The notes under the pieces were generated by a model, which ran no database searches, was not told the origin of the DNA, and saw only the letters and a program-made list of their open reading frames with translations. The position numbers and the translations under genes were made by a program. This document shows positions 9,988 to 21,730 of a stretch of DNA of 25,854 nucleotides, piece by piece; positions within the stretch are counted from its first letter, which is position 1; the number at the start of each line of letters is the position of its first letter. The DNA lies in the IMG/VR virus record IMGVR_UViG_3300020352_000032, positions 1 to 25,854 of that record, one strand, 5' to 3'. The stretch comes from a virus. Lineage: Duplodnaviria; Caudoviricetes.

Positions 9988-10122
9988 ATGGATCGCCACA
10001 CGTTTGAAAATTGGAAGCGCGTCAAAGAGGCTTTAGAAAACGCGGGTAAAACTGACTGCATGTTCTACAAGCGTACAGTGGCGCTTTTATCTGGTAGACA
10101 AGATCCTTTATACTTGAAGTAA
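9988..10122 (+). CDS. Small hypothetical protein of cyanophage type (44 aa, not in ORF track)
   Basis: MDRHTFENWKRVKEALENAGKTDCMFYKRTVALLSGRQDPLYLK fills the gap. The ENW..VK.ALE..GKTD.MFYKR pattern is one I recall from cyanophage small ORFs. Confidence 0.7.
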   Translation: MDRHTFENWKRVKEALENAGKTDCMFYKRTVALLSGRQDPLYLK

Positions 10123-10136
10123 CAAAGCTAGGACTC

Positions 10137-10409
10137 GTGATTGAAATTTACGCTGCGATCCTAGGCGCATCCCTAGGCATTGCCGGGATGAGCGTTTCTG
10201 GTTTTACTAGACGTACCAGCGAAAGTCGTGAAGCGGTTATTCGCCTCACGGCTGGCGTTGAATCTATTGCAACAAAGCTTGAAGATCTACATCAAGACAT
10301 GAAGGCAGAAAAAGTGCAGGCAACTGCTGACCGCCGCGAAATCTACGAACGTCTTAACGACCACGGAAACCGCATCACCGTTCTGGAGTACAAAAGCCCA
10401 CAAGGCTAG
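10137..10409 (+). CDS. Membrane-anchored coiled-coil protein (holin or lysis-accessory candidate)
   Basis: GTG start; N-terminal hydrophobic helix (IYAAILGASLGIAGMSV) followed by a heptad coiled coil; located upstream of the lysozyme. Confidence 0.6.
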   Translation: MIEIYAAILGASLGIAGMSVSGFTRRTSESREAVIRLTAGVESIATKLEDLHQDMKAEKVQATADRREIYERLNDHGNRITVLEYKSPQG

Positions 10410-10432: not shown

Positions 10433-10585
10433 ATGAACATCGAAGAAATCCTGGGCCACCCCGCTTTCTGGGTTGTCGTCGCTGCTGCATCCGAGCTAAT
10501 TGGCATGAGCAAGCTAAAAGACAACAGCGTCATCCAGTTTCTGTTCACTGCAATCCGCAGCATTAAACCCGGAAAAAAGGGCTGA
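10433..10585 (+). CDS. Holin-like small membrane protein (50 aa, not in ORF track)
   Basis: MNIEEILGHPAFWVVVAAASELIGMSKLKDNSVIQFLFTAIRSIKPGKKG: hydrophobic helix, amphipathic helix and basic C-tail. TAGTAT -10-like box at 10407-10412. Confidence 0.65.
   Translation: MNIEEILGHPAFWVVVAAASELIGMSKLKDNSVIQFLFTAIRSIKPGKKG
10573..10579 (+). other. Putative -1 ribosomal frameshift heptamer A_AAA_AAG
   Basis: Codons read GGA AAA AAG GGC TGA, so the heptamer is in the X_XXY_YYZ phase. The -1 frame is open from 10567 to 10818. Confidence 0.6.
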
Positions 10586-10818
10586 TACCACCTGACGGTC
10601 GCTGGATCGTTCTGTTTAGCACCCGTTCCTTGTGGAACAACATAGACAAAGCCATCCAGCGCCGTAAATTTTACGCAACGCTGCCCAAAAAACTAGACCA
10701 AGCTGAAGAGGACTGGCACGCAACCCAGCCTGCCGCAGTACCACCTCCGCAGCGCCTTTACGACCTGCACCTTCGCGCACCATGGCATGAGCCCAAACAC
10801 CCCGGTCCACCTGAATGA
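10573..10818 (+). CDS. -1 frame extension of the holin-like ORF (track ORF 10630..10818)
   Basis: Bounded upstream by TAA 10564-10566 and contains no in-frame ATG. Reads KKGLIPPDGRWIVLFSTRSLWNNIDKAIQRRKFYATLPKKLDQAEEDW... Confidence 0.55.
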   Translation, partial: KKGLIPPDGRWIVLFSTRSLWNNIDKAIQRRKFYATLPKKLDQAEEDWHATQPAAVPPPQRLYDLHLRAPWHEPKHPGPPE

Positions 10819-11475: not shown

Positions 11476-11790
11476 GTGGTAGTGGACCACCAGATCGACG
11501 GGACCGAATTAGTTCCCCGAAAGAAAGCCAAGGTGCGCTTTCGCGATCATATTCTGAAGCACTGGGACTATTGTTGCGCTTACTGTGCAGAGCCGCTAAA
11601 AAAGAACGCGACATTAGACCACGTAAAGCCAAAAGCTTTAGGGGGTCAAACCGAACGAACAAATTTGGTGGCATGTTGCGCTAAGTGCAACGGGAGTAAA
11701 AGCGCAACACAATGGCGTGAATGGTACAAGGATCAGCCGTTTTGGTCAGCGGAACGGGAAGCAGACATATCCGAATGGATCGAGGACTGA
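11476..11790 (+). CDS. HNH endonuclease
   Basis: CAYC...TLDHVKP...GG....NLVACCAKCN..K; GTG start at 11476 or 11482. Confidence 0.9.
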   Translation: MVVDHQIDGTELVPRKKAKVRFRDHILKHWDYCCAYCAEPLKKNATLDHVKPKALGGQTERTNLVACCAKCNGSKSATQWREWYKDQPFWSAEREADISEWIED

Positions 11791-19333: not shown

Positions 19334-21730
19334 TCAGTCAGACCACTTGTTCCAGGCCGCGTCCATCAGGGCGTCTGATTCCTCCTTGGTACGGTCCATC
19401 TGCCTCGCGCGGGGATATTGCCCTGAGCGTCCAGTCTGGGCAGAACCCGCACCACCACTGGGTTCTGAGGCTGGACAGCCCCCCGCATCAAGTGCAATGT
19501 GTCCAGGCTCGGCATCCGCACCTAGTTCCAGGCTGGACACTTCTTCTTTTTCTGGGGTGCTGTCCACCCTGACATCCGTTCCAGTGGAAGGGTTTTCCTT
19601 AGGTGGACACACATACGCAACCTCTCCACACGCGAGGACAGCCTGGTACGTCTTTTTTCCGTACCTACCAGCCCCTGGAATCTCAGAAATAAGACCACGC
19701 TTTACCAACCGTTGGAGCGACTTCTGGATGGCGGCAGTTTTTCCACCCACCACTGGATCGGAATTGAGGTCTGTATTGGAAAATGCACGGGGGTGCCCAA
19801 TACGAAGCCTCTGGAGCACCTTGTCAGTGACGCTGGAAGGCGAGGTATTGCTGTCATCGACCTCTGGGGTGAAATCAGCCACGGAGAAGCTCAGGTCGTC
19901 CTCCTGGCGCATGATGAGCGCCGTGCCGGAGCGACCGAACCGCGATTTTTCAATGGTGATGATCCGGCTGTCCGCTAAAGCGGGACTTTTTTCCACTTCG
20001 TCTTTGCTGGGCTTACGAAGTGAAAGTGTGGTATCCACAGCATCCCGAATGGCAGAGGTGCCACGGAAACCGCCCTGTTTGTTGGCGTGATGAATGATCA
20101 GGATGGTTGTCGCTGGAAATAGAACCCCGTTATTCCTGGTCAGCCAATACAACGGCGTTGCAAAGTCACTTTTGTTTTCATCAAAAGCCCTACCACCAGA
20201 ACAACCAATCAGCGAGTCAATAACAACAAGCTTTGGTTGGACCTTTTCCATCAGCTTGATGAACTGGGCATAACGCTGGAGCGACCAGTCCGTGAGCAGC
20301 TTGGTCTTTTCATCCAACGGGTACTCAACCTCTTCCAACTGCTCTTTGAGCTGGAGAAGCGGCTGGTCACCATTCAGAAGCAGCACAGGGCCTTGCTGGA
20401 CTGGAACGTGCCTACCACGGACCACAAAGGGCGCTCCGGTAGCAATGTGCCGCGCCAAGGTCCAAGCAAACATGGATTTGCCATCACCACCAGCGCCATA
20501 GATCAGGGCAACGGAAGGGTGCGGAAGCACATCAGGGATCAGATATTCACGCTGACCCTCTAAGTCTTGGAGCGCAGCCACATCCATAAGCCCCTTAGCG
20601 CCTTCAAACTGGATCTGATCAACGATCAGCTTTTCAAGTGCAAACTGGTCCCGATAACCAGCATCAAGCGCCAAGCTATTTAGCTTGAAGTTCATTTCAG
20701 CGGGGTTATCCAGCTCCAAATAGGAACGAGCCTTTTGAATTACTTCCTCAAAGCACAATGAAACCCGCTGATAGAAAACAGACTTGGCTTCAACTTCATC
20801 AACAACTGAGCCGCAGCCATCACGGGTGAAGCGTGCCCGTTCTGGGTCGTAATGATCAGCCAGCCGGATGAGGCTTCCAAAGCCAAGACCACCTTGGGAC
20901 TTGAAGCCATTTTCCCAGCGGCTTTGGCAGGGGTCTTTGCCATCAGCCCAGTCATCTTCGTATTCCGAATCCTGAAGCGACCATTCACGCCACAGGTTGA
21001 GACCTTCATCACCAGGCAGGTCGGACTGGAGCATGGCGCCGATCTGCCACCAGAGCTGTTCAGAGCCGCGGCCTTGTGGCTGGATGACTGACAAACAGGA
21101 CTGAGCAATGGCAATCCGTTCTTCAGTGGAACGCATTGACCAGCGACCATCACGGAGGGACTTACCCACCTTTTTGTCGTTCTTAGCCTTGAACGACTGC
21201 TTCATACGCTCTAAGAGCCACTTAGGAGCCTCTGGAACGGCGTTTAGGTCACCTTTAAGCGTGTAACTACCACCAGCGGGGTAGGCACCGTTTAGAAGCC
21301 CTTGACGGCCCCAGAGCACTTCCCAGCCTTCACCGCTACCAGCAAGGCTGATGTCCGAGACCTCAGTCCAAAGTTCGGATGGAACGGTGAACAGAAACTT
21401 TGCAGCCGCTTTTTTAGGCGACTTAATGCGTGGAGCCTTGGCTAGGTCTTTGCCCCACTTGGCCTCAACAGCGCCGAGATTGGCATCAACGTCAAGGATG
21501 ACCAGCCCTTCAGAGCGTGGTCCTGTGAAAACACCAACAGCCTGGAACTTTTCAGGCTCACGTTCAATGACCATCGCCGTGGCTTCGGGCGACATCTTGT
21601 CGTGGTGCGCCCTACCAAGCGGATTTTTGCCACAGGCTTCACCGCCTTTTGGCATTGGAACGCCTTTTTTGTAGATAGGCGCTGTTGCCCACTGGTTCGG
21701 CAAAGACCGAACAAACGACAGCAGATTCAT
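19334..21730 (-). CDS. Primase-polymerase (AEP PrimPol) + PriCT-2 + RepA-like AAA helicase + winged-helix-like region
   Basis: 'GKNP', 'VGVFTG', 'LVILDVD' (PrimPol); 'WWQIGAML...LWREWS' (PriCT-2); Walker A GAGGDGKS, Walker B LVVIDS, 'IIHHANK', 'RGTSAI', 'EKSR'. Confidence 0.92.
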   Translation of the reverse strand: MNLLSFVRSLPNQWATAPIYKKGVPMPKGGEACGKNPLGRAHHDKMSPEATAMVIEREPEKFQAVGVFTGPRSEGLVILDVDANLGAVEAKWGKDLAKAPRIKSPKKAAAKFLFTVPSELWTEVSDISLAGSGEGWEVLWGRQGLLNGAYPAGGSYTLKGDLNAVPEAPKWLLERMKQSFKAKNDKKVGKSLRDGRWSMRSTEERIAIAQSCLSVIQPQGRGSEQLWWQIGAMLQSDLPGDEGLNLWREWSLQDSEYEDDWADGKDPCQSRWENGFKSQGGLGFGSLIRLADHYDPERARFTRDGCGSVVDEVEAKSVFYQRVSLCFEEVIQKARSYLELDNPAEMNFKLNSLALDAGYRDQFALEKLIVDQIQFEGAKGLMDVAALQDLEGQREYLIPDVLPHPSVALIYGAGGDGKSMFAWTLARHIATGAPFVVRGRHVPVQQGPVLLLNGDQPLLQLKEQLEEVEYPLDEKTKLLTDWSLQRYAQFIKLMEKVQPKLVVIDSLIGCSGGRAFDENKSDFATPLYWLTRNNGVLFPATTILIIHHANKQGGFRGTSAIRDAVDTTLSLRKPSKDEVEKSPALADSRIITIEKSRFGRSGTALIMRQEDDLSFSVADFTPEVDDSNTSPSSVTDKVLQRLRIGHPRAFSNTDLNSDPVVGGKTAAIQKSLQRLVKRGLISEIPGAGRYGKKTYQAVLACGEVAYVCPPKENPSTGTDVRVDSTPEKEEVSSLELGADAEPGHIALDAGGCPASEPSGGAGSAQTGRSGQYPRARQMDRTKEESDALMDAAWNKWSD
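19429..19609. repeat. Three consecutive inverted-repeat pairs of a GTCCA(G/C) motif; candidate replication origin
   Basis: GTCCAGTCT 19429 / AGGCTGGAC 19468 (inner CAGAACCC/GGGTTCTG); GTGTCCAG 19499 / CTGGACAC 19533; TGTCCACC 19561 / GGTGGACA 19602. The repeats are certain; the origin function is inferred. Confidence 0.6.

Follow-up and report, generated by a model that had tools for sequence, protein, structure and literature searches.

A conserved slippery site very likely programs a −1 frameshift in a holin-like gene of aquatic cyanophages

In phage lambda, the dual-start holin/antiholin gene S105/S107 yields two forms from one membrane-protein gene, while G and GT of long-tailed phages are a soluble chaperone encoded between the major tail and tape measure genes. 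In lambda the latter pair is made in a ratio of 30:1 by −1 frameshifting (Atkins et al., PMC5009743), and the phage −1 frameshifts described so far lie mostly in tail chaperone, capsid and tail genes, PMC12846349 likewise dealing with a tail chaperone. Recoding has been tied to lysis functions in the MS2 coat-lysis case and in a Lactococcus phage lysin made from two overlapping genes (PMC10885494, PMC5009743), the former being attributed to termination by a later title in the reference entries of these papers, but these concern an RNA-phage lysis gene and an endolysin rather than a membrane protein with short and long isoforms. A search of open full text, as distinct from subscription genome papers and supplements, returned no frameshifted holin-like gene and no report of the cyanophage site considered here, and the word 'holin' is absent from the searched text of PMC10885494 (PRFect) and PMC5009743.

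Here we analysed a 25.9-kb virus record (IMGVR_UViG_3300020352_000032, 25,854 nt; the window), which carries thyX, tail genes and a lysis region together with genes for a sigma factor and a DNA polymerase. Because the cultured relatives of its short gene ORF1 (18 records) are all Synechococcus phages or cyanophages, with one uncultured phage in addition, a cyanobacterial host is probable. Like lambda G/GT, ORF1 is a short phage gene in which a −1 shift close to the 3′ end would occur at a low level and give a minority C-terminally extended form; its heptamers belong to the X_XXA_AAG class, and the same comparative logic serves to detect it (PMC5009743). Unlike that chaperone, whose gene precedes the tape measure gene, the 50-aa ORF1 product is hydrophobic and is encoded beside the endolysin. 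A tail assembly chaperone identity was ruled out by position, hydropathy and presence in T7-like podoviruses, and there was no PHROG tail match. The heptamer A_AAA_AAG is that of E. coli dnaX and IS3-family elements (PMC5009743, PMC4066793), and cyanophage hosts appear mostly to carry a single tRNA-Lys(UUU), but the ORF1 site lacks an internal Shine-Dalgarno (SD) sequence and a conserved 3′ hairpin, so that a far lower efficiency is expected than in dnaX and IS3. The likeness to lambda S105/S107 is that of one membrane-protein gene with two forms; in ORF1, however, these would differ by a C-terminal frameshift addition of 78 aa rather than by the start codon, and we detected no sequence relation of ORF1 to these holins or to that of T7 gene 17.5. 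The locus would thus represent a known mechanism in a gene class where we found it undescribed.

Shift site and coding selection in the −1 frame

ORF1 ends CCC GGA AAA AAG GGC TGA, and its −1 frame is shut by TAA at 10564-10566 and open from 10567 to 10818 (83 codons), with no ATG and a TTG at 10630. A slip at the heptamer is predicted to give a long form of 128 aa (49+79), the final 32 nt of the extension being overlapped by the endolysin gene, which starts at ATG 10787. Across the 33 ORFs of the window, A_AAA_AAG stands in phase at 3 of 7541 codon positions, the two besides ORF1 being in an HNH gene (11476-11790, codon 41 of 104) and in a primase-like gene (19334-21730, minus strand, codon 691 of 798); this rarity and the conservation described below speak against a chance occurrence. 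A 44-aa ORF (9988-10122) without a PHROG or Pfam match separates the tail genes from the lysis cassette.

Table 1 Features of the lysis region in the window
Feature	Coordinates	Strand	Basis
ORF1, holin-like membrane protein, short form, 50 aa; phrog_22542 (unknown function)	10433..10585	+	PHROG, hydropathy
Slippery heptamer A_AAA_AAG, tandem-slip phase, one codon before the ORF1 stop	10573..10579	+	
−1 frame extension, 79 codons after the shift	10579..10818	+	C-half homologous to phrog_3316
Weak, non-conserved local hairpin 3′ of the heptamer, candidate stimulator at most	10581..10620	+	
Upstream 90-aa protein (phrog_26178), second holin or lysis-accessory candidate	10137..10409	+	
Endolysin (phage lysozyme)	10787..11413	+	PF00959, E 6.9e-26; PHROG endolysin

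Homologous loci were drawn from IMG/VR, JGI metagenomes, GTDB and GenBank phages. ORF1 was matched in 438 of 460 records, the other 22 comprising 15 tRNA loci, 5 loci from myophages and 2 contigs that are truncated, and collapsing identical junctions left 261 distinct ones, which are related sequences whose counts do not represent independent events. An in-phase heptamer, defined as X_XXA_AAZ at most 4 codons from the ORF1 stop, was present at 238 of these 261 junctions (224 A_AAA_AAG, 13 G_GGA_AAG and 1 G_GGA_AAA), and at every one of the 238 a related extension lies in the −1 frame, detected by the full HMM in 227, by a C-terminal HMM in 9 and by the motif [LI]x[SA]P[WF] only in 2. As the extension HMMs were built from the same loci and several scans used extension queries, the share of junctions with an extension is inflated; codon choice at the junctions was unselected because the scans use degenerate back-translation. 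Of the 23 junctions lacking the heptamer, 19 are also devoid of the extension, which means that not every homologue has a long form, 3 carry the extension as a separate gene, and a single exception (L292) keeps an intact extension in the −1 frame behind a degenerate G_AAA_AAG, one base from its close relatives, which may reflect single-tRNA slippage or a recent mutation. None of the 261 junctions was fused in frame.

The codon that supplies the first base of the heptamer encodes 12 different amino acids, its final base always fitting. A proline at this position is coded CCA ahead of AAA AAG (22) and CCG ahead of GGA AAG (13), and elsewhere in ORF1 (130 loci) four-fold codons have A as third base in 344 of 1678 cases and the remaining Lys codons vary (AAG 208, AAA 86). 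The extension-less clade retains Pro-Lys-Lys but codes it CCA AAG AAA or CCA AAG AAG. Judged by these codon patterns, the heptamer is selected at the nucleotide level, beyond what the amino acids need. Since the representative of the extension-less clade (L155) nests in a supported group of heptamer loci, the ORF1 tree, short and weak at 50 rows and 41 columns and unsuited to ordering events, suggests that site and extension were lost jointly.

In culture, the heptamer with its −1 extension occurs in the siphoviruses KBS-S-2A, S-CBS1 and S-CBS3, in S-EIVl with G_GGA_AAG, and in the T7-like podoviruses WH11-B, S-B28 and 7B11-B with a shorter extension; the GenBank records of these seven phages never join the two frames. 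The site is missing from P60, S-SRP01, S-CBP1 and DSL-LC07, whose in-frame ORF1 is longer. The records of S-EIVl (L152, 1504-1644) and S-B28 (L151, 1501-1647) leave ORF1 without annotation.

Past the ORF1 stop, the synonymous share of single-base codon differences was 0.80 in the −1 frame against 0.21 and 0.08 in the other two (79 sequences, a set chosen by a pattern fixing four residues), and stops occurred in 0/79 sequences in the −1 frame against 9/79 and 68/79 in the others. In the extension columns outside the selecting pattern (D, F, T, R and S), the residue is kept in 72-79 of the 79. By these comparative measures coding selection acts on the −1 frame from the ORF1 stop onward. Start codons are scarce there: 84 of 130 loci have no ATG, GTG or TTG within the first 12 extension codons, and 98 have no ATG within the first 30.

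It could be supposed that the extension is a separate gene reached by re-initiation or an internal start such as TTG 10630, the heptamer merely encoding a needed Lys-Lys, and indeed its homologue has its own GTG or ATG in S-CBS2, S-CRES1 and S-CRES3, and GenBank calls internal starts for S-CBS1 gp23 and S-CBS3 gp22; but the former three phages lack the heptamer, a start codon equivalent to TTG 10630 occurs in only 18 of 130 loci with the residues upstream of it conserved, the codon overlapping the ORF1 stop is mostly CTG (85) or GTA (25), with CTA 12, TTG 5 and TTA 3 (130 loci), and Lys-Lys needs neither AAA AAG nor a preceding A, the G_GGA_AAG clade having a single Lys at the site, all of which makes this explanation very improbable. 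Slippage of RNA polymerase on the A run, adding a base to an mRNA that is then translated normally, would give an identical product and might suit the 12 of 223 loci with a run of 8-9; however, the run is 6 long in 199/223 loci and 3 long in 13 G_GGA_AAG loci, selection tracks codon phase rather than run length, and one RNA contig spans 10453-10694 without an indel (a weak point, as contigs drop rare variants), leaving this route hardly credible. The RNA runs consist solely of short contigs with small shares and bear on neither expression level nor slippage.

The initial annotation had proposed a programmed −1 frameshift at this position. Its coordinates for ORF1, the heptamer, the limits of the −1 frame and the lysozyme overlap all hold on a recheck of the letters; the heptamer and the −1 phase (238/261 junctions) and the residues upstream of TTG 10630 are all conserved, no start codon of the extension is conserved (130 loci), and the proposal passes every comparative test that it named. 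On this comparative basis the programmed −1 frameshift in ORF1 is very likely real, and tandem slippage of two tRNA-Lys(UUU) is its highly probable mechanism.

Stimulators, tRNA and shift rate

A strong anti-SD duplex 5-17 nt upstream of the heptamer was found in at most 3% of loci. The 3′ hairpin pointed out by the initial annotation does form in the window (−19.5 kcal/mol), marginally so, with a z of −1.56 and 19 of 200 shuffles as good, but it is not conserved: the RNAalifold consensus fold of 39 sequences contained 0 pairs (nested, local pairing), and the mean fold z was −0.9 3′ of the site (61 loci) versus −0.68 and −0.73 further downstream. The 'efficient' shifting that the annotation associated with A_AAA_AAG is unsupported here, neither an SD nor a conserved 3′ stimulator having been found. 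In E. coli, the best V_VVA_AAG heptamers without stimulators shift at ~0.3%, and the best 3′ context raises this up to 3.7% (Sharma et al., PMC4066793), while A_AAA_AAG and G_GGA_AAG count as highly shift-prone, a property tied to a single tRNA-Lys (Atkins et al., PMC5009743). Because no stimulator is conserved, the shift rate is probably low, in the order of 0.3-4%; ribosomes pausing at the neighbouring stop codon might raise it.

The tRNA-Lys complement was surveyed in a sample of 41 genomes of the likely host family, the one to which a MAG titled Prochlorococcaceae belongs. A tRNA-Lys(UUU) signature was present in 40 of the 41 and the CUU type in 3, possibly 4, as read by eye, and ARAGORN, run on 8 tRNA loci, confirmed 4 UUU genes and 1 CUU gene. 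In one genome (G034), tRNA-Lys(UUU) and tRNA-Lys(CUU) genes stand in tandem (L431, 1287-1557). Hosts carrying both tRNA-Lys types might shift less at A_AAA_AAG.

ORF1 and the module carried by its extension

Holins are small, have one or more membrane segments and end in a basic C-terminus, and ORF1 fits these features in size, predicted membrane segment and C-terminal charge. It comprises one hydrophobic segment of moderate hydrophobicity (max KD19 1.49 from residue 6) containing a conserved Glu, followed by an amphipathic helix and a basic tail; a model of an ORF1 relative has a helix at 10-25, and residues A18, S20, E21, N31, S32 and Q35 are invariant in 22 homologues. Because its charge is −2 in residues 1-9 and +5 in residues 27-50, an N-out/C-in topology is predicted. 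An ORF of the endolysin cluster comes next after 171 of the 196 heptamer loci for which a next ORF was called, the exceptions to endolysin adjacency including WH11-B, S-B28, 7B11-B and L335. In the three podoviruses, ORF1 lies between the tail fibre and small terminase genes, presumably the place of T7 holin gene 17.5. At L335 (152-546), the frameshifted gene stands alone, opposite in direction to tail-fibre-like genes and with no endolysin behind it.

The initial annotation's holin label is plausible from the position beside the endolysin and the one hydrophobic helix, but has no backing from family or fold: the only PHROG holin match of the ORF1 family is a weak one to phrog_1356 (E 0.012, 2 of 22 homologues), ORF1, the extension and the long form have no naming match in Pfam, NCBIfam or the ESM Atlas, and Foldseek gave 0 matches at E<=0.001 for them in its viral set. 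From gene position and hydropathy, the chances that ORF1 works like a holin are roughly even, and those of an N-out/C-in single-pass holin lie slightly on the favourable side. The upstream 90-aa protein, which combines a hydrophobic segment at its N-terminus with a charged C-terminal part, is an equally good holin candidate, and a homologue of it lies upstream at 168 of 213 heptamer loci versus 1 of 16 others.

The extension consists of an aromatic segment, a long helix, a Pro-rich linker and a C-terminal [LI]x[AS]PW motif. Prediction gives two helices, a short one and a long one, and a Pro-rich tail lacking structure. The AlphaFold models, among them that of the ORF1 relative, contain helices in no compact fold (pTM 0.34 and 0.35). 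Searched alone, the extension of the window had no PHROG match, while 6 of 55 extensions matched phrog_3316 (best E 8e-10), a family of cyanomyophage proteins of unknown function that includes S-N03 gp240, S-CAM7 gp243 and S-PM2 p161. Alignment of the extension profile to five myophage proteins by hhalign covered 45 columns (95.6%, E 1.1e-8), which are the C-terminal 45 columns of phrog_3316 including its LGG-x-[MI]-x-[LI]-x-[AS]PW end. The shared C-terminal part links the two families. In myophages the homologue stands alone as a gene, begins at a start codon of its own and has a separate hydrophobic N-terminus that bears no relation to ORF1. An annotated lysin lies within a few genes of the module in 3 of the 5 myophages, and no annotated lysis gene adjoins it in 2. 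In two phrog_3316 members, S-PM2 p161 (L418, 3001-3399) and S-CREM1 gp30 (L423, 2504-2923), a basic N-terminus leads into a lipobox-like hydrophobic stretch whose last residue is Cys, and a pair of Cys lies at the C-terminus; S-CAM7 and B3 have none of these Cys residues.

In siphoviruses, the extension homologue of S-CBS2 starts at a GTG that overlaps, in the −1 frame, the stop of ORF1, whereas S-CRES1 and S-CRES3 encode it separately behind ORF1, where it begins at an ATG of its own; none of the three has the heptamer, and their stand-alone forms show no obvious signal or membrane segment by inspection. A GC hairpin with a T run lies between the ORF1 homologue and the extension gene in S-CRES1 (L417, 2383-2410) and S-CRES3 (L422, 1639-1668), resembling an intrinsic terminator, and transcriptional read-through there could give the same kind of high:low ratio. 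At the protein level, 12 JGI contigs and 23 Logan/ENA contigs have a 131-aa in-frame fusion on record (P0062, P0069); a search for the DNA of this multi-contig fusion did not find it, and its nearest locus, the 98% relative L335, keeps the frameshift. Most single-contig 'fusions' are probable homopolymer errors and were set aside, P0009 and P0061, which cluster with 49-aa short forms, differing by one Lys at the site. A weak search found no extension homologue of 196 aa or more. From the sequences, separate, overlapped, frameshifted and fused forms all appear to exist.

Two-component spanins have an N-in membrane anchor, periplasmic helices and a lipoprotein partner. The frameshift may be real and ORF1 nevertheless not a holin, the two forms being another envelope-acting pair, such as a spanin substitute that works on the outer membrane or a factor directed at thylakoid membranes, with the upstream 90-aa protein as the holin. 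The anchor-helix-Pro-rich layout resembles i-spanins, no holin family matches beyond E 0.012, ORF1 is only moderately hydrophobic and keeps a conserved Glu, and the myophage homologues bring their own hydrophobic N-terminus, two of them a C-terminal Cys pair. Set against this, the charge pattern (N-out/C-in, where a spanin anchor is N-in with its helices in the periplasm) puts the C-terminus of ORF1, and so the extension, in the cytoplasm, the S-CBS2 and S-CRES stand-alone forms have no obvious signal or membrane segment, and neither ORF1 nor the extension matches a spanin family. We regard such a pair as unlikely, though it deserves weight.

The long form might instead be a true antiholin that delays ORF1 triggering, one of the two pairings put forward by the initial annotation. 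Dual-start holin/antiholin pairs likewise share a membrane domain and differ by a charged extension, and site and extension are lost together in one clade; but an inhibitor that acts one-to-one would be scarce at the predicted share of no more than a few percent, and the module also occurs in myophages, where the N-terminus is dissimilar to ORF1. This role is improbable, and a holin with an accessory fits better than a holin with an antiholin, given that other cyanophages encode the extension separately.

Proposed mechanism and significance

Taking these observations together, we propose that a small share of ribosomes would shift −1 at the conserved heptamer, by which two products would arise from a single gene: the 50-aa membrane protein, abundant and likely a holin, and a 128-aa form, rare and tethering a cyanophage-specific accessory module to the ORF1 membrane anchor. 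Sharing that anchor, the long form would likely join ORF1 oligomers and so place the module at the membrane as a lysis accessory. As a whole, this explanation is a good deal more probable than any other we weighed; for its most specific part, in which ORF1 oligomers contain the long form as a minority subunit, with the module on the cytoplasmic face tuning or assisting lysis, our support is tentative and somewhat short of even.

The frameshift site is widespread in aquatic cyanophages, and no cultured-phage record examined annotates the joined gene; the frameshift exposes a hidden, predicted protein and ties it to an unnamed myophage family. A broader and doubtful extrapolation is that cyanophages of all three tail types share an unrecognised phrog_3316-like lysis module, that the frameshift sets a holin:accessory stoichiometry, and that the module replaces spanins. 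If so, the module would reach the membrane by four routes, namely its own anchor (myophages), a separate gene beside the holin-like gene, the −1 fusion and a fixed in-frame fusion, and would serve a cyanobacteria-specific lysis step, for example disruption of the outer membrane or of thylakoids, that spanins would otherwise perform. How a programmed frameshift arises can be followed along the natural series of separate, overlapped, frameshifted and fused forms, and the extension gives a handle on how cyanophages break the cyanobacterial envelope.
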